From Escherichia phage Bf23, in sequence record OR083247.1: 64,000 nucleotides of DNA. One strand, given 5' to 3'. Below are positions 3,955 through 60,007 of this stretch, in pieces (position 1 is the first letter of the stretch; every line of letters starts with the position of its first letter). Under the pieces are notes generated by a model. That model worked only from the letters and a program-made list of their open reading frames with translations, was not told the origin of the DNA and did no database searches. A program made the translations under genes and the position numbers.

Positions 3955-4347
3955 ATGGAACAAGTATATTGGCGTCAGATTGATCCTAGTTTGGTGAAGC
4001 GTGCGGAGAAGCTGCTACAACGTTGGTTGGGGGTAAGACAAGCCTCCTTCACTTTTCCGGAGCAGCAAATAGACGATCCCTGTATTGGTGTTTTCCTATC
4101 AGGCTACGCTAGGGAATGGGAATTGGATTGGAATGAGTTGTCTGCTATGGGTTTAATTGTTGCACTAAATTTCTCTTTGTTCCATCCACGTGGTTTGGCC
4201 CTATGTCGTGTGCCTGATGACGGTTGTTCGCCCCATCTTTTACAGGTGGAAGATGATATTTGGGAGTACACTCCAGATATTCTCAAAGAAGCTAAAGAAC
4301 AGTTAAACCATGTTGGGATCTATGTTCCAGGCTTGAATGATGAATGA
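3955..4347 (+). CDS. Hypothetical protein, tandem paralogue B (130 aa)
   Basis: Paralogue of 3517-3945 by eye; RBS AAGGGGG upstream. Confidence 0.55.
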   Translation: MEQVYWRQIDPSLVKRAEKLLQRWLGVRQASFTFPEQQIDDPCIGVFLSGYAREWELDWNELSAMGLIVALNFSLFHPRGLALCRVPDDGCSPHLLQVEDDIWEYTPDILKEAKEQLNHVGIYVPGLNDE

Positions 4348-4370
4348 TTTTTATTAGCTGAACTCTGATT

Positions 4371-4396
4371 ACCGAGTCATTTTGGCTCGGTTTTCT
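4371..4396 (+). terminator. Rho-independent terminator
   Basis: Stem ACCGAGTC / GGCTCGGT (one G-U pair), loop ATTTT, followed by TTTTCTCTGT. Confidence 0.55.
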
Positions 4397-4438
4397 CTGT
4401 GCTTAAAGACACTGATAGCACCTTTGGGAAAAATTTAC

Positions 4439-4480
4439 TTGCATGATGCCCAAAATCTTGATATAATATTTATATTGAAT
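4439..4480 (+). promoter_or_regulatory. sigma70 early promoter with extended -10, followed by an atypically long (about 490 nt) untranslated leader
   Basis: TTGCAT (4439-4444), 17-bp spacer, TGaTATAAT (-10 at 4462-4467), family leader TATTGAATTGAGAGA. Confidence 0.6.
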
Positions 4481-4964
4481 TGAGAGACATTAGTAAAAAT
4501 TGATTTTGCTAATTTTTCTTGTTTACAATCCGCGATACGGAACAGTTAGGCTGCCCCATTAAGGGTTGTTTTAACTATTACTAGTGTTTATATTGCATTA
4601 GTTAATCTTCAATTAAGTGATCTGTGTACCCTGAATTCGGAAAGGTAAATCCAAACCGTGCATATTTAGCTCGTTATATAGGCAGAGTTTTATATGGGGG
4701 TGCGAACGAAAAGAGCAGCGAATGGCGGCACGTACAGTAGTCACCTACCAATAGGATAGTGAGGACAAATAGAATCGGCTTAGCGGCCAATGACCTAGGT
4801 TCTATTCTGTATATGAGCGAAGAGAGCACAGCACTGAGATATGATAACTTATTCATATTGTTTGATGATAATTGATGTTTACGTAAATAGTAGTAATAGT
4901 TGTTCTATTCTTTCTGAATAGTCCTAAAGAAAAGATTTCGATTAACCAACATAGGAGTATTGTT

Positions 4965-7754
4965 GTGTTTTCTATCCTCCAAGGTCACGCCGGGTTTTCT
5001 CGTGATTTAGCAACAGGTATTTGGCGAGAAATCAAAGCGGAAGATTATACCTTTGCCAAGCGATTCTCGAAAGAGCATCCAGAAGGTAAACCAGCTTCTA
5101 TGCCCTTCAAATTTGATGTAATAGAAGAGCACGACCCACAAAGCCTTGCCGAAATGTTACCCCTTATGAGACGTTTAACGTCTGATCCTCATATCGTTGC
5201 GGTACGAGGTCGATGTCTTGCACCTAAAAATAATGTGCGGCGTAAGAAAGGTAACTTTAATGTATCTAATCCTAGTAATATTATTGCTATGGACGTGGAT
5301 GGTATCCTAGATACCGGTGGGTACGACAAATTTAATCTTGTTGGTATGGCTCGCCACATTATTAAGATGTTGAATAGTATTAGTGAGGATATGTTCCCTC
5401 TTGATGCAGGCTTTATAGCTCATGCATCGTCTTCGGCTGGGCTAAAACCAGGTATCCGAATGCACTTAATGCTAGAATCTAATGTCAAGGTAACTCAGGG
5501 TCAGCTAAAGTTCTTATTTACATCTATCAACGATAGTAGTAAGCAAAAATTTGGTTTTGATATTGCCGACCTAGCTTATTATTCATCTGTCCAGCTCCAC
5601 TATTTTGCCGACCCCTTATTTAGCGATGGTATTGTTGATCCGTTTAAAGCGGAGAGTAAGCCACGTCTGGTGTATGTTAAAGGTTCGAAAGTAAATTTGC
5701 CCAATAATCTGGTTGACTATGAAACAACTAGAGGGGAGTTTAAGGAAGAGTTTTATTCCTTACTTGATCAAATTAAAGGCAAAAAGATTGCTTCTGATAA
5801 AGTAGAAGAAACCATCAGCGAGTTAGAAGAGGCTGATGATGGGGTGTATTTGCGTATTATCCCCAAACTATACCATAGAGCATTAGAGGATGGGGTTGAT
5901 TTTGCATGGCTAGAACGTGAGATTAAACCAGCTTTATCTGAATATATTGCAACTAAAGATAACAGTCGTAATATTCAAGATTACTTTAATAACGGTCGTA
6001 AGCAGGCTCTCAAAGCGTTTGTTAATAATTCTAAACGTGAGATTCCATTAAATCTGAAAGGTGTTCCACTTAAGAAATTAGAAGTGGATTCTCCACCAGA
6101 AGTTCCATACCTGAAGATTAACATTGTGCCCCCCAAAGGCCATATAACATTTGTTAAGGCAAGTCTTGGTACTGGTAAAACTACGGCAGTAACTAAATGG
6201 CTGGACGCAGGTGTTCTTCCGGGCAACTTTTTAGCAGTTACAAATACTAGAGCACTGGTATCTTCAAATGCCAAGAAATTTAGTGCAGGACAATACGATA
6301 AGTCTGTAGATATGCTCAACTTTAAACGTGGAGCTATTGATCGTATGTCCACAACTATTCACTCTTTGCATAAGTTCAAAAGTTTTATTGGGCAAATAGA
6401 CACCATTTTTATTGATGAATGTGACGCTGTAATGAATGACCTATTATTCGCCCCTGTTGTTAAACAACGTCGCGAGTGTATTCAAGTTCTACGTGACATC
6501 CTCATGACAGCTAAGACTGTAATCTTATCCGATGGTGATATTAGCGCTGAGACGATTGAAGCATATGGTTCTCTAATTGATTTTGATAAACCAGTAGCAT
6601 TTTATAATCATCACCGTAAAATGCTGTCAAAAGCACACGCTTATGAGTTCCCTGATGAATCCAGTATTTGGGTTGCACTTCAGACTTCTCTAGAGATGGG
6701 TGAGAAATCTATTCTAGTATCTGATTGTGGTCCTGATGAGCTGAATGAGAAGGGTATGGCACTACGTCGTAATACTGGTGCGTTAGTTAAGGAAATCCAT
6801 TCAAACTCTACGTCAGATGTGGATATTCGACGTATTCTGGATTATACAACTAATGAGCTAATTGATCAACAAATTGATTGCTTATTATGTAGCCCATCCG
6901 TAACGAGTGGTGTTGACTTTAACTACTTTGATAACGTATTTGTTATTACTAGAACCAGTAATCAAGCGCCAAACATGCGTTTCCAAGCAATCAGGCGCGA
7001 CCGTGGTGCTCAGAATATCTATTATTTTATTGATAAATCCACTAGTGGGTTCTCCGCAGGTTCTGAACAATATAATATTGATGAAGGTTGGCTGGAGTTA
7101 GCACAGCAATTATACGCACGTCGCAGGGAACTGGAATCCAGGAACTATACTAGTACTTTACGTTATTACTTGCTTGATCAAGGTGCAACTATTGATATTT
7201 TCAGCGAAAGCTGGGGAACTATTGAAGGTGCTGGTAAAGAGTACACAGAAGAGCGAATCAAAGCTATTCTGCATTCAACTCCAGATTATTGTGCTCCACG
7301 TCATGCGGATGCGTATGAAGCTAAACTACTTCTTGTTCGCTATTATCATCTTGAGTCTATTAAAGATGTAACAGTTGAGCATGTTGAACAATATATCAAA
7401 GATAAACCGAATGATCGAGCTGCATTCTTCCATAAGATGCACGAGATGTTTTGGGAAGATATTAAGAAGTGTTCAAACGTCACTATCAAACCATTCATAG
7501 AAGCTCTGAAAGGTAAGAAGAAAGATTTCTTCCTTAAAACAGGTCAGAGTGCTAATGCAAAATATGCTAGAATGTATCTTGGTATGATGGGCATTGGTAA
7601 AGATATGAACACGGAGAATATTGTAGACTGGTATAGAACCTATTGTAAAATCGAGTGTATGCCAATTCCTTATAAGTTCATGACTGACGAGGAAAAACAT
7701 ATGCATGATGAAGCAATGTCAGAGCTAGGTGCTAGAAATGACAGTGAAGAATAA
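4965..7754 (+). CDS. Large P-loop ATPase, putative replication-initiation/origin-binding helicase-like protein (929 aa)
   Basis: GTG start with RBS AGGAG; Walker A SLGTGKTT, Walker B-like FIDECDAV. Function inferred from motifs and its position at the head of the replication module. Confidence 0.55.
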   Translation: MFSILQGHAGFSRDLATGIWREIKAEDYTFAKRFSKEHPEGKPASMPFKFDVIEEHDPQSLAEMLPLMRRLTSDPHIVAVRGRCLAPKNNVRRKKGNFNVSNPSNIIAMDVDGILDTGGYDKFNLVGMARHIIKMLNSISEDMFPLDAGFIAHASSSAGLKPGIRMHLMLESNVKVTQGQLKFLFTSINDSSKQKFGFDIADLAYYSSVQLHYFADPLFSDGIVDPFKAESKPRLVYVKGSKVNLPNNLVDYETTRGEFKEEFYSLLDQIKGKKIASDKVEETISELEEADDGVYLRIIPKLYHRALEDGVDFAWLEREIKPALSEYIATKDNSRNIQDYFNNGRKQALKAFVNNSKREIPLNLKGVPLKKLEVDSPPEVPYLKINIVPPKGHITFVKASLGTGKTTAVTKWLDAGVLPGNFLAVTNTRALVSSNAKKFSAGQYDKSVDMLNFKRGAIDRMSTTIHSLHKFKSFIGQIDTIFIDECDAVMNDLLFAPVVKQRRECIQVLRDILMTAKTVILSDGDISAETIEAYGSLIDFDKPVAFYNHHRKMLSKAHAYEFPDESSIWVALQTSLEMGEKSILVSDCGPDELNEKGMALRRNTGALVKEIHSNSTSDVDIRRILDYTTNELIDQQIDCLLCSPSVTSGVDFNYFDNVFVITRTSNQAPNMRFQAIRRDRGAQNIYYFIDKSTSGFSAGSEQYNIDEGWLELAQQLYARRRELESRNYTSTLRYYLLDQGATIDIFSESWGTIEGAGKEYTEERIKAILHSTPDYCAPRHADAYEAKLLLVRYYHLESIKDVTVEHVEQYIKDKPNDRAAFFHKMHEMFWEDIKKCSNVTIKPFIEALKGKKKDFFLKTGQSANAKYARMYLGMMGIGKDMNTENIVDWYRTYCKIECMPIPYKFMTDEEKHMHDEAMSELGARNDSEE

Positions 7755-55653: not shown

Positions 55654-57318
55654 TTACGCAAAAAATTTACCATTCTTAAAGTCAATCAAGGTGCGCTGAC
55701 CGTTTGCATAGGTAATAACATGCGTTTGTGTCCAGCTTGACGCGCCAACGTTGTAACCCATGTCCAGACTACCAGACACGCCAGCGGTGTATACGCCGCC
55801 GTAAATACTGGCGGTATGAGTGTGCCCCGTGTTCAGTTTACCCAATTTCTTAAATTGCTTCGGATTGCCACGGCTCCCGTTAATGCCATTGTGACCGTGT
55901 ACGCCGCATTCAATGCCTGCAATCTTGAAAGATTGGTCAGTCGTTAGGAAAATGGCGTTAAACTCGCAACCTGCAACCTTGCGCAACGCATAATCTAGCA
56001 CGTTGAAAGTATCGTCTTTTTCTGCAATAGCTCCATAAATCGCGGCATTAAGGCGGTGATATAGTTCGGCGTTGGCTGGATCGTCTTTGATGTTAGCATT
56101 ACGATCATCCAGCCAACGGGATAGCGCCAGATCGTGGTTTGATTCTACGATGATCGTTTGAGAAAAATCGCGCTCCATTGATTCCAACACGCGACCGGTA
56201 TCGATAAGATCATCCAGAACTTTATCACGTCCGGCGGCGTATTGTTTTGCTAGGAATACACCCGAAGCGCGATTGTGATGGTTGCGTGATGTAAAATCAT
56301 GCACGTCATGGACAAATTGATATTTTGGTTTAAGAATATCAAGCAAGCTATTTTCGCCAGCCCATGACGCAGCGGCGCAATCATCATCCAGTTTTTCAGC
56401 GTGGACGTCGCCATATTGTAAACCTAAAACGTGCCCCGTTGTTTCATAGCATCCGGCGGGAGTAGCGCAAACATTCAGATCGTAAAAAACGCCGCTTTCG
56501 TCCATAGTTTCAAGCTGGCGCACAAAAAACTCACCGTCCTCGTCGAACTCGACAACAAGCGCACCGAAATTATGCAACGCTTCCGCTTTCTGTCCTGCTT
56601 TCTGCTGGATGTAGTTTTTTAGCGTTGCCGTGCCGGTTGAATACATACGGCGCACTACTTCACCTTTTAAAGCTGGGACGCTCTCGGCGGTGATTTTAGC
56701 CGCTCCAATTGCCAGACCTTCAAGGTTGAGCGCGGTTGCAGTTTCAGCAAATCCAGAAAGCGGATAATCTGCGGTAGGTAAAACGTTAATTTCAGCCATG
56801 AAAGCAAAGCGGCGATTATTCAAAAACACGTTTTTATTGCAGATATATTTGTCAAATGCGGAATCATATTTGATTCCTTCGGCGCCCTCGCCATTTTGAA
56901 AACCGTTTTTGTTATAAATAAACTTGCTAACCAGCAAATCAGCGCCGATATATTTAGCAAATTGCTCCAGTGAGGCTAAAAAGTTTTTATGCGGGAAAGT
57001 ATTATTCTGAATCGACGTAATAATAAAGCGTTTACCCTGCTTTACTTCCCAGCTTTCAACCGTGCTAGAAACAATCCCCGCCGCTTCTGGGCGCTCATCG
57101 TTTTTAATGGCTTTTGCTACTTTCGCCGCTTTCGGTTTAGCTGGTTTATTTGCTTCCAACCAATCACAAATCGCGGTCGAGTGTTTTGTAGTATCATAGA
57201 CCGCCTTTGATATATCGTCGCAGACTTCCAGTTTAGTGGCGCGCAGACGTTTACCATAGAAATTAAAGTCAGCGGCCATTTTCAGGATAACGGTTTGTTT
57301 TTCTGCGGAAATAATCAT
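55654..57318 (-). CDS. A1: Pre-early protein A1-like (554 aa), putative metallophosphoesterase-type nuclease
   Basis: Size close to that recalled for T5 A1; metallophosphatase-like His clusters (..GVHGHNGINGSRG.., ..GHTHTASIYGG..); neighbours dmp and A2-like genes. Confidence 0.65.
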   Translation of the reverse strand: MIISAEKQTVILKMAADFNFYGKRLRATKLEVCDDISKAVYDTTKHSTAICDWLEANKPAKPKAAKVAKAIKNDERPEAAGIVSSTVESWEVKQGKRFIITSIQNNTFPHKNFLASLEQFAKYIGADLLVSKFIYNKNGFQNGEGAEGIKYDSAFDKYICNKNVFLNNRRFAFMAEINVLPTADYPLSGFAETATALNLEGLAIGAAKITAESVPALKGEVVRRMYSTGTATLKNYIQQKAGQKAEALHNFGALVVEFDEDGEFFVRQLETMDESGVFYDLNVCATPAGCYETTGHVLGLQYGDVHAEKLDDDCAAASWAGENSLLDILKPKYQFVHDVHDFTSRNHHNRASGVFLAKQYAAGRDKVLDDLIDTGRVLESMERDFSQTIIVESNHDLALSRWLDDRNANIKDDPANAELYHRLNAAIYGAIAEKDDTFNVLDYALRKVAGCEFNAIFLTTDQSFKIAGIECGVHGHNGINGSRGNPKQFKKLGKLNTGHTHTASIYGGVYTAGVSGSLDMGYNVGASSWTQTHVITYANGQRTLIDFKNGKFFA

Positions 57319-57669: not shown

Positions 57670-58086
57670 TTATTCACCTGCGGCTTGTTTTACTTCATCG
57701 GCAACGCCTAACAGTTGCGCCACGGCGTCCAGCGTTTCTAACTTTGCGCTTTCCAGACTTGCCAAATCGTCGGCGTCTTTGATAATGCCGGAATCAATAG
57801 CATGTTTAGCGATAACGCGTACATAATGAGCTTTGCGAATTGAACTACCGCCGCCAACTTTGCGCGGCTTATCGCTTTTCTGATACGCTTTCGCGCTGGT
57901 CAATTTTGAGCGAACAGACACGGGAGAAGCCGCGCCAACTGTTTTAGCAATCTCTTTCAGGCCGTCGCTGTTGGCGAACTCCAAGCCGTTTTCGTTGATC
58001 AACTGTTGATACATGGTAACAGCCTGTTGGGTGTTTTCTTCATTCCAAGCAAATTTTGCGGATTTTTCGGTTTTAACGTTAGCCAT
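57670..58086 (-). CDS. A2: Pre-early protein A2-like, putative DNA-binding protein (138 aa)
   Basis: Size and position relative to the A1-like gene; Lys/Ala-rich. Confidence 0.55.
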   Translation of the reverse strand: MANVKTEKSAKFAWNEENTQQAVTMYQQLINENGLEFANSDGLKEIAKTVGAASPVSVRSKLTSAKAYQKSDKPRKVGGGSSIRKAHYVRVIAKHAIDSGIIKDADDLASLESAKLETLDAVAQLLGVADEVKQAAGE

Positions 58087-58184
58087 GATTATAACTCCTA
58101 TTGAATTAATTTAAGGGATAAGATTAACATAATGTTAATCGTTATATACCCCAAACTACTGGGGTATATAAAGTTAACACTAAG

Positions 58185-58436
58185 TTATAAAACAGCTTCC
58201 CATTTTTCGTTGCGTTGAACAACCTTTACAACGTCGCCGGATTTAACGCGAACGCTAAAAACGGTTTTGCCGTTGTTACTACGTTCATTTTCAGCGTATA
58301 CCGCGTCGATTGTATCAAACGGCATAAGCGCCACACCTTTAATGCGTTCGGTTTTTCCGGTTAATTCGTCCGTTTTAGTAACGAAAGGAATAAAAACGGA
58401 TTGACCAATTTTAGGCGCGGTAATAACGTTTTTCAT
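58185..58436 (-). CDS. Hypothetical protein (83 aa)
   Basis: ORF with RBS AGGAG; leader contains a 10-bp-stem hairpin. Confidence 0.45.
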   Translation of the reverse strand: MKNVITAPKIGQSVFIPFVTKTDELTGKTERIKGVALMPFDTIDAVYAENERSNNGKTVFSVRVKSGDVVKVVQRNEKWEAVL

Positions 58437-58663
58437 AGTATAAACTCCTAGTTATTTGGGGATTGTTCCGCATTACCTGCTAGAAAGTAGCAGGTAATAA
58501 GAAAAAATCCGCTCGCCAATATAATCAATTTAAAGAACTCCACTCAGGCCGCTATATCCCAGTTAGGGGGCGGGACACATTATGGTAAGTGCCGACCGTC
58601 AAATTGTATCAAGTTATCGCTCTTATCGAACTGGGTACATCTTAAAGCCTATCGGCTAGGGTG

Positions 58664-58867
58664 TCAAACAATTTTTTGCAGTTTTTTATGATTTTCTTTC
58701 AGGTCAATCATAATATTTCGCCAGATCATTTCCAGACCTTGCTGGCGGCCTTTCTTGTACTGCGTGAATCTATATCTTACGGATTGTTGAGCTACTGTCA
58801 ACAATTTTTTAGTAGTAACATCTAATTTTTTAGCTGGTTTACCAGTGATCAAAAGCGTTTGTTTCAT
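58664..58867 (-). CDS. Small basic protein (67 aa) bracketed by 24-bp inverted repeats
   Basis: Lys/Arg/Gln-rich ORF with RBS AAGGA; inverted repeats at 58633-58654 and 58904-58927. Confidence 0.4.
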   Translation of the reverse strand: MKQTLLITGKPAKKLDVTTKKLLTVAQQSVRYRFTQYKKGRQQGLEMIWRNIMIDLKENHKKLQKIV

Positions 58868-59320
58868 ATCTGCGATTCCTTATATAATTGATAAGTTTAC
58901 CGCCGATAGACTTTAAGATGTACCCAATTTTTAAAGAGCGTGGCGGTAAACTTCCCGCCGTGTAGTTCGTCATTGCCGCCCTACGAGATAAATAATAGGG
59001 GATTCCCAAAAATGGCGCAACCTTATTTTTGTAAAGAAACGTAAAGAAAGCAAATACTCGCAAGGTGTCCGGCGATTGCCCAAGTTTAAAGGAAACGGGC
59101 GCACGAATACCATAAAACCCAGCAGGTTGGCAAGTAATTTTTTCATTTATATTTGCCTTACCCTACTTGACAAAATCTAAAAAGCTCGTGGTAGCGATAA
59201 ACGAGGGTAGGCAATGCAATGGCCTGGCTAAAACTTTCATCGCGTTCTAGGGCGTTTTAGGCGCATTCTAGCCTTGTTGATAACTTATCCCCAGAAGCAA
59301 AAATGAAATTTTCCTAGTTA

Positions 59321-59351
59321 TCCACTTGACTTTTATTTTCCAGTGGATAAC
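59321..59351. promoter_or_regulatory. Inverted pair of DnaA-box-like sequences
   Basis: AGTTATCCACT..AGTGGATAACT around a 14-bp AT-rich centre. Confidence 0.5.
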
Positions 59352-59494
59352 TACTTATTTTATGAAATAAATTAATTGACTTTTATTTGTTAGTATGCAT
59401 CGGAAAGATAGCAGACTAATAATTGCTAGGATGATAATCATGCTGGTGGATTGTAACGGCTTAAACTATCAGCGGACTATTAATCACGGAAAAT

Positions 59495-59545
59495 CTCGTT
59501 AGCTAACTAACTATTTCATGATGTATAATATACATATAAATTAAT
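59495..59545 (+). promoter_or_regulatory. Early-family sigma70 promoter facing the + strand cassette
   Basis: TATAAT (59524-59529) with the family leader ATATAAATTAATGAGAAATAA; -35 is weak (AGCTAA). Confidence 0.5.
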
Positions 59546-59633
59546 GAGAAATAATAATTATAATAAATAATAACTACAGTAAATAATAACTATAAGAAAC
59601 TATCGGCCTAAGTGAGAACCACTATCATTTAAG

Positions 59634-59741
59634 TTATCCACAAGTTTATTAACAGCACAAAATGATTTGACACGATAGGCGGCGATATAAAGACTTATCC
59701 ACAGACTTATCCACAGGTTATCCTACTGTATAAATATACAG
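59634..59741. promoter_or_regulatory. Cluster of three consensus DnaA boxes plus a LexA-box-like palindrome
   Basis: TTATCCACA at 59634-59642, 59695-59703 and 59707-59715; CTGTATAAATATACAG (CTGT-N8-ACAG) at 59726-59741. Confidence 0.6.
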
Positions 59742-60007
59742 GGTAAATGGGTAGTGTTAACAACTGCAATCAATTTTAAGCGGCCTAAAACGCTTTCTAA
59801 CGAGCTAAATGCGGTGGGGTAATATTAAAGTAAAGCCTTCACCCGTCGCCCTGGTGGCTTCGCCGTGTTTTGCTCTTTACTATACCGCTGCGCGGTTAAC
59901 ATAAAAATAAGCGTTAGGCAAGGAAAATAAAAAGGTAAAATAATATTTGCCCCTAGAAAGAAAATACCTTTATCATTCACTCACCGATTAACGAGGGAGG
60001 CCAACAA

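Follow-up and report, generated by a model that had tools for sequence, protein, structure and literature searches.

A conserved inverted repeat brackets an exchangeable gene slot in the pre-early DNA of T5-like phages and may act as a long-range RNA duplex

Several genera of T5-like phages keep a mirror copy of a promoter core, with no promoter of its own, on the far side of a small exchangeable slot for host-takeover genes, and the puzzle is why this second copy persists. The question is addressed here with a 64,000-nucleotide (nt) stretch of DNA from Escherichia phage Bf23 (sequence record OR083247.1), referred to as the window, in which the slot is occupied by a single gene, hdi, encoding a host division inhibitor. 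The two copies form an inverted repeat, and neither it nor its enclosed gene is new, both having been catalogued in the T5 literature and in GenBank. The new element is comparative evidence that is suggestive of a conserved role at the RNA level, and it is not decisive. In the reading favored here, the two arms pair in leftward read-through transcripts of the pre-early genes and serve as a processing or insulating stalk of the RNase III type around the swappable slot, a proposal that is credible but given somewhat less than an even chance.

The sequence CCGATAGRCTTTAAGATGTACCCA occurs exactly twice in the window, at 58632–58655 on the minus strand and at 58903–58926 on the plus strand. The arms take the form GCCGATAG(G/A)CTTTAAGATGTACCCA, an inverted pair of ~25 nt in which GCCGATAG is the 8-mer that starts both arms, and neither arm is internally palindromic. 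A first-pass annotation of the window, made from the letters alone, had described this pair; the repeat itself and its single mismatch (G versus A) hold up, while the coordinates given there (58633–58654 and 58904–58927) are off by one base. In 100 dinucleotide-preserving shuffles the expected number of matches to CCGATAGRCTTTAAGATGTACCCA is 0, even when three mismatches are allowed, which rules out a chance repeat. Complementarity between the arms reaches 39 nt at 85%, joining 58618–58656 with 58902–58940. In this extended form the outer AAGAGCG block of the left arm pairs with CGCTCTT of the right arm, and the right arm includes a GCTCTTTAAAAATTGGG block (hdi sense) that is kept in all of the Demerecviridae examined. 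Read in the hdi-sense direction, the right arm comes first, as the 5' arm, and precedes the hdi ATG by 36 nt; the left arm follows as the 3' arm. The only substantial open reading frame (ORF) between them is the Lys/Arg-rich one at 58664–58867 on the minus strand, as had been noticed in the first-pass annotation. A local 12-bp stem around the right arm (58893–58904 with 58942–58953) was considered and rejected as not conserved, with the upstream hairpin flipped in two loci (L003 and L021) and a change in a third (L027) left uncompensated.

It is essentially certain that this feature is the IRA/IRA' pair of phage T5 around hdi, and that its left arm is the core of the promoter known as T5P1 or P_D/E20. 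The T5 record AY587007 annotates "inverted repeat A" (IRA) at 4682–4706 and "inverted repeat A'" (IRA') at 4950–4974 directly under the left and right window arms, respectively, and in that record a "putative pre-early promoter T5P1" covers arm A and "T5P2" falls between the two. In AY543070 the ORF between the arms is T5.008, with the promoter P-H22 inside it. Each window arm is identical to its T5 counterpart at every base, the G-to-A difference of the right arm included. In a comparison of 25 T5-like phages, IRA, IRA', and IRB were treated together as "Repeat Region 1" (Davison 2020). The syntenic place is also the same, between the T5.007 homolog and the repeat and DnaA-box region of the terminal repeat, as are the 25-nt sequence (the left arm is identical), the enclosed T5.008/hdi gene, and the overlap with the promoter. 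Nothing essential differs from the T5 pair; the window phage is a different Tequintavirus, without the hegG homing-endonuclease insertion found further upstream in T5. The 800 bp around the repeat match 393 phage records and show 91.5% identity to T5, and over 8 kb the nearest relatives are just ~90% identical to the window phage.

The strong pre-early promoter T5P1/P_D/E20, whose activity in the window phage is predicted by orthology, has its spacer, its -10 element (TAAGAT, 58644–58639), and its start region in the left arm. This sigma-70 promoter (TTGACA-17-TAAGAT, 58667–58639 on the minus strand) drives T5.007-A2-A1, its -35 element overlaps the hdi stop codon, and the A-rich upstream element is present in the window. 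The hexamers had been pointed out in the first-pass annotation and were rightly read, being orthologous to the T5 promoter. The right arm is an inverted copy of the promoter-core sequence that lacks the -35 and sits in the 5' leader of the slot. Overlooked earlier was a second sigma-70 promoter within the ORF, TTGACA-16-TAAGAT at 58801–58774 on the minus strand, which is the ortholog of P_H22/T5P2. P_H22 of T5 is active during infection, as established by primer extension in the T5 literature. A recent preprint places P_H22 fully within hdi and has P_D/E20 partly overlapping the 3' end of hdi; fragments carrying P_H22 and P_D/E20 could not be cloned, and the region resisted both cloning and deletion (10.64898/2026.04.02.716235). 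The T5P1 annotation of AY587007, at 4663–4737, lies over TTGACA-17-TAAGAT, and the preprint's drawing of P_D/E20 fits that record.

The pair is kept far beyond T5 and the window phage. The sample consisted of ~100 loci drawn from IMG/VR, metagenomes, and GenBank, and an unbiased search for the best inverted repeat was made in the 1.4 kb upstream of the T5.007 homolog. The first-pass annotation had suggested looking for the repeat in related genomes, and this search returned the pair in every locus where it could be run, amounting to ~100 Demerecviridae loci with a T5.007 homolog. It was recovered in Tequintavirus, Epseptimavirus, Sugarlandvirus, Serratia phage Kamaji, and the My1-like phages, even where arm sequence had diverged; in the last three groups the arms differ from those of the others, but both have diverged together. 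Epseptimavirus has GTTCCC in place of GTACCC in both arms, and in the Epseptimavirus phages TrudiRoth and smaug the repeat is a near-perfect 39–40 nt. The distance between the arms is 243–245 nt in Tequintavirus and ~398–410 nt in loci with an extra small ORF ahead of hdi. Among Markadamsvirinae, roughly 450 genomes bear hdi and at least 500 bear A2. No equivalent inverted pair was found in the Vibrio Demerecviridae loci L102 and L103. In the former (Vibrio phage D441), the 19-nt motif GCTTAGAATGGCTTACAGG occurs four times upstream of the A2 homolog, at 304, 1208 (minus strand), 1513, and 1972, so that one copy is inverted, and three of the four overlap annotated start codons.

This breadth bears on whether the right arm is simply a second promoter. 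In every lineage a TTGACA-like -35 precedes the T5.007-side (3') arm at promoter spacing, and it never precedes the 5' arm. The right arm could in principle be a divergent promoter or RNA polymerase site, a mirror of the T5P1/P_D/E20 -10 and initial transcribed region that fires rightward to the repeat region and the 011–016 operon. It does hold the TAAGAT -10 and downstream region of the strong promoter with AT-rich DNA upstream, and the pre-early genes do form two divergent units. The lack of a -35 at 16–18 bp in any lineage excludes a canonical promoter, with ATAAGT standing at the -35 position and the nearest TTGATA 20 bp away. The promoter scan made no call at the right arm, the -10 of the 5' arm is degraded in Kamaji (TAAGTT) and in Sugarlandvirus, rightward transcripts of this kind would be antisense to hegG in T5, and the rightward promoter that has been characterized experimentally sits upstream of gene 011. 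A divergent promoter is therefore regarded as improbable.

What lies between the arms is far less constant than the arms themselves. Depending on the phage, the slot holds hdi alone, an extra ORF together with hdi, or an unrelated gene of 56 amino acids. The last arrangement is found in DT57C and in L027-type phages, where the arms are kept and hdi has been replaced; presence or absence of the enclosed gene, the other comparison suggested in the first-pass annotation, thus does vary among relatives with the arms retained. As judged by comparison of sequences, the pair bounds a fixed, non-inverting slot with exchangeable gene content. The replacement gene belongs to a family of 56–57 amino acids with the signature ITVEQAEAVI.FCANH, found alone in DT57C-type phages, although GenBank has no annotation for the copy in DT57C, and in UTK0009 beside a divergent hdi. 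A second small slot family encodes 52 amino acids and has the signature HPATHDTIEKIEQW. Alternative slot genes were found in loci L027, L028, L048, and L049, in L104 (DT57C), in L041, and in L024, L044, and L110, and neither family has a match in Pfam. A conserved leader and ribosome-binding block (GGCGGTAAACTTAT...TATAAGGAATCGCAGAT, 58868–58902 on the minus strand in the window) always follows the 5' arm and serves the first slot gene, whichever that is. Within it, RNAalifold predicts an invariant small hairpin at 58868–58890 (CTTA/TAAG; alignment columns 52–55 with 66–69) that would place part of the first slot gene's Shine-Dalgarno sequence in a stem and that shows no covariation.

The occupant of the slot in the window is well known from T5. 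Its 67-amino-acid product is strongly basic, with 16 Lys/Arg against 4 Asp/Glu, matches PF24188 (DUF7416) over its full length (1.1e-35), belongs to phrog_4718, and is 94% identical to T5 Hdi (T5.008) and 100% identical to a protein of phage FFH1. Expression of T5.008 filaments cells, resistance maps to ftsZ, and Z rings are destabilized (PMC10714956). In T5, hdi is dispensable in the laboratory and gives a competitive advantage (PMC10714956; preprint 10.64898/2026.04.02.716235). By orthology, the window protein would likewise inhibit FtsZ ring formation.

The identity of the gene product argues against the earlier proposals for what the arms do, namely, that they are operators for the basic protein they enclose or that the whole is a mobile or invertible miniature cassette. 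The strongly basic composition and the symmetrical placement of the arms gave these ideas their appeal. The ortholog acts on FtsZ, and a shallow, single-sequence AlphaFold (AF2) model shows the window protein as one long helix (residues 17–66; predicted local distance difference test score, or pLDDT, 84.5) with no helix-turn-helix. No DNA-binding Pfam family and no homolog of solved structure matched the window protein, and the arms persist in DT57C-type phages without hdi. The literature, the model, and the DT57C-type phages together led to the rejection of Hdi as a DNA-binding autoregulator, and the first-pass suggestion of an operator pair for the enclosed protein is unlikely to hold. The suggestion of a miniature cassette survives loosely, in that slot genes swap between phages, but not as a mobile element resembling a miniature inverted-repeat transposable element (MITE): there are only two arms in 64 kb, no target-site duplication or direct repeats were seen flanking them, and the arrangement is syntenic in ~100 relatives. 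The likeness to MITEs and to the Hin/hix and Gin/gix switches lies in inverted repeats of ~25 bp that flank a small promoter-containing segment. Unlike those systems, this one is not multicopy and shows no second orientation. An invertible switch was rejected because hdi points the same way as the T5.007 and A2 homologs in the ~47 loci that tblastn covered and in all additional loci fetched by a match to hdi. The annotation around the T5 pair (AY587007, AY543070) includes no recombinase or transposase. Taken together, an operator for the enclosed protein or a mobile or invertible cassette is very hard to sustain.

The minus-strand ORF at 58839–59063, which overlaps IRA' and is named T5.009 in AY543070, does not keep its frame from one relative to the next: a 2-nt indel polymorphism precedes the hdi ATG, and Epseptimavirus has lost the start codon. 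Going by these sequence comparisons, T5.009 is probably not protein-coding.

One line of evidence on the second arm comes from the way in which the two arms have changed together. Forty distinct, phylogenetically related haplotypes were aligned over the 24-bp core, giving 960 cells, and standard pairs are found on the hdi-sense strand in 99.7% of them, compared with ~95% on the other strand. Three core pairs change on both sides: one is UA or AU (10 sequences), a second occurs as CG, UG, or UA (24, 12, and 4, respectively) with CA never seen, and a third changes from CG to UA (one sequence). Pair positions 9, 10, and 19 are examples of natural variation at places in the 3' arm that are neutral for the promoter. 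Cells with a double change number 15, against 4.3 in shuffles, and 0 of 500 shuffles scored as high. When the partner is slid by one column, pairing falls to 44–46%. In addition, both arms share a +1 T/A indel in loci L024 and L076.

Carrying more weight, the differences that remain between the arms are distributed unequally between the strands. On the hdi-sense strand they appear as 48 G·U cells at 9 sites and as only 3 A·C cells, all of them singletons, and 36 of 38 haplotypes have a fully paired core in the sense direction, compared with 6 of 38 in the antisense direction. Counted by type of site, the ratio is 11 G·U to 4 A·C (one-sided p = 0.059), or 14 to 5 (p ~0.03) when three distant lineages are included by inspection. 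Transitions in the flanking DNA show no strand bias (C>T 43, G>A 39, A>G 49, T>C 55), and biased mutation therefore does not explain the G·U excess and was ruled out as its source. RNAalifold independently recovers the arm helix as the consensus fold. For the window itself, the prediction is a duplex of 28 + 7 bp that dominates both the minimum-free-energy fold and the centroid. A search of Rfam gave sub-threshold chance matches only and no known RNA family.

These patterns can be set against the idea that the second arm has no function of its own. On that account it is an ancient inverted duplication of the promoter core, kept alike by gene conversion, and the arms are homology blocks for the exchange of accessory genes between coinfecting T5-like phages. 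The mosaic content of the slot (hdi alone, two extra ORF families, a replacement gene) fits such exchange, the shared indel and the double substitutions could be products of gene conversion, and hdi is not needed in the laboratory. A functionless copy of 25–40 nt should nevertheless have been lost somewhere; instead it is present in all ~100 loci across several genera, with its arms diverging together. Blocks of homology for exchange need not be inverted, and the G·U asymmetry is not predicted. A nonfunctional duplicate is for these reasons considered rather unlikely.

A stronger competitor holds that the arms, perhaps with the third GCCGATAG, serve as DNA operators, bound not by Hdi but by another pre-early or host factor, such as A2, A1 with RNA polymerase, or a host protein. 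Such a factor would bind the arm in the promoter core and loop it to the arm 270 bp upstream, trapping P_H22 and T5P1/P_D/E20 and contributing to the A1-dependent shut-off of the pre-early genes. One arm does span the -10 and start site of a strong promoter, and the literature indicates that shut-off needs A1, which is associated with RNA polymerase, and that A2 is a DNA-binding dimer. The 8-mer GCCGATAG is enriched in the window (4 copies versus 1.05 expected), with three of the four copies in this 1-kb control region and one of them in a conserved promoter-like spacer. The covariation of the arms between phage genera is also what would be expected of sites that coevolve with a protein. The resemblance is to the looping operator pairs gal OE/OI and lac O1/O2, in which two similar sites a few hundred base pairs apart bracket promoters and one site lies over a promoter core. 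In contrast to those pairs, no cognate binding protein is known here, and the arms are not individually palindromic as the site of a dimer usually is. Neither the strand-specific excess of G·U nor the 1-nt indel shared by both arms is predicted for DNA operators, and near-identical phages differ in which of the states CG, UG, and UA they show at one pair, with CA absent. What sets pre-early promoters apart from early ones could itself be the make-up of the -35 and -10 elements, with no operator needed. Operators for another factor are thus an unlikely explanation.

The RNA reading accounts for the second arm differently: it may have been retained because the two arms base-pair in leftward, hdi-sense RNA. 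The nearest leftward promoter-like site upstream is TTCTCA-18-TATAGT at 59618–59589 on the minus strand, kept in Tequintavirus and Epseptimavirus loci, with the third GCCGATAG, at 59600–59607, in its spacer. Transcripts from this pre-early site, the likely source of RNA with both arms, would run through the whole slot. A promoter and terminator scan of the minus strand from 59589 to the hdi start found no sigma-70-like promoter and no terminator, and therefore a full-length hdi mRNA would have to contain both arms. Such transcripts could fold into a long-range duplex of 25–40 bp with the slot looped out, and the duplex would be a substrate of the RNase III type whose cleavage might excise the mRNA of the toxic slot gene, insulate it, or tune it. 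Transcripts from P_H22 and T5P1/P_D/E20 lack the 5' arm and would escape the duplex. In its fullest form, the proposal is that IRA/IRA' is an RNA element whose 3' half doubles as the DNA core of a strong promoter and which loops out a hot-swappable slot for toxic genes so that their mRNA is processed or insulated apart from that of T5.007-A2-A1; this fuller statement is offered still more tentatively than arm pairing in read-through transcripts as such. Both the RNA with two arms and its cleavage by RNase III are steps that we infer from sequence.

Several points weigh against an RNA duplex. When sites are counted as independent, the G·U excess is marginal (p ~0.03–0.06), and the haplotypes are related by descent. 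Two A·C mismatches occur in the arms of DT57C-type phages. Gene conversion between the arms would likewise produce covariation, as would two sites that coevolve with one DNA-binding factor, and the third GCCGATAG, lying as it does in the spacer of another leftward promoter-like site, hints at a motif that acts at the DNA level. The literature searched reports neither a transcript with both arms nor processing by RNase III in T5. The sources also disagree on what to call the promoter in the arm: AY543070 has "P-D/E 20" at 4338–4664, which differs both from the T5P1 placement of AY587007 and from the drawing in the 2026 preprint.

There are precedents for the kind of element that an RNA duplex of this sort would represent. 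In ribosomal RNA (rRNA) operons, the sequences flanking 16S and 23S form RNase III processing stalks, and the early genes of T7 have RNase III sites between them. As in those systems, flanking complementary sequences within one transcript would form a duplex of at least two helical turns that loops out a gene, and the helix appears to tolerate G·U, and not A·C, on the transcribed strand. The looped-out unit here differs from that of the rRNA stalks in being an mRNA slot of 200–400 nt, the helix has a 3' half that also serves as a promoter core on the DNA, and cleavage is predicted here; the T7 sites are local hairpins, unlike the long-range stalk proposed. A second parallel is the sib site of phage lambda, which retroregulates int; there, a local hairpin lies downstream of the gene and is completed when transcription reads through a terminator. 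The shared principle would be that a complete double-stranded site is present only in transcripts from one upstream promoter, so that the start site sets the fate of the RNA. In contrast to sib, the site here would be completed by an upstream leader segment.

If the RNA reading is right, IRA/IRA' would be the first cis-acting RNA element described for pre-early expression in T5. It would help to explain how the dose of a toxic division inhibitor is set separately from that of the essential A1 and A2 genes, and it would help to make sense of the organization of a fragment that carries two very strong promoters.

The genes downstream of the left-arm promoter all lie on the minus strand. The first is the T5.007 homolog (58185–58436; DUF7177), followed by A2 (57670–58086), a DNA-binding protein needed for the second step of DNA transfer, and by the DNA transfer protein A1 (55654–57318); a T5.005-like membrane protein is also among them. 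In gene order, the region reads as in T5, with A1, the T5.005-like gene, A2, the T5.007-like gene, and then hdi between its two arms, all inside the terminal repeat. It is from these surrounding genes that the region is recognized as pre-early, first-step-transfer terminal-repeat DNA of a T5-like phage (Tequintavirus).

Other small repeats occur nearby. The leader of the T5.007 homolog has a 23-nt hairpin (58460–58482 with 58488–58510) that is 83% complementary with a 5-nt loop and is also found in DT57C; with no T-run after it, the hairpin does not look like an obvious terminator. A perfect 12-nt palindrome (58142–58153 with 58160–58171; TTATATACCCCA/TGGGGTATATAA) lies between the T5.007 homolog and A2. 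Just upstream of the 5' arm in the hdi sense, at ~58942–58959, is the hairpin GGCGG-GAAGTTTA-CCGCC. In L003 and L021 this hairpin is the exact reverse complement with its loop flipped, which suggests, on sequence grounds, a local inversion of the palindrome. Further upstream, 58930–60000 corresponds to "Repeat Regions 1+2" of T5 fused, because the window phage is without the hegG insertion. Within this region, 59381–59610 of the window has no T5 counterpart, T5 5419–6021 is absent from the window phage, and a 15-nt inverted pair (59315–59329 with 59339–59353) bears the DnaA-box-like sequence TTATCCAC.

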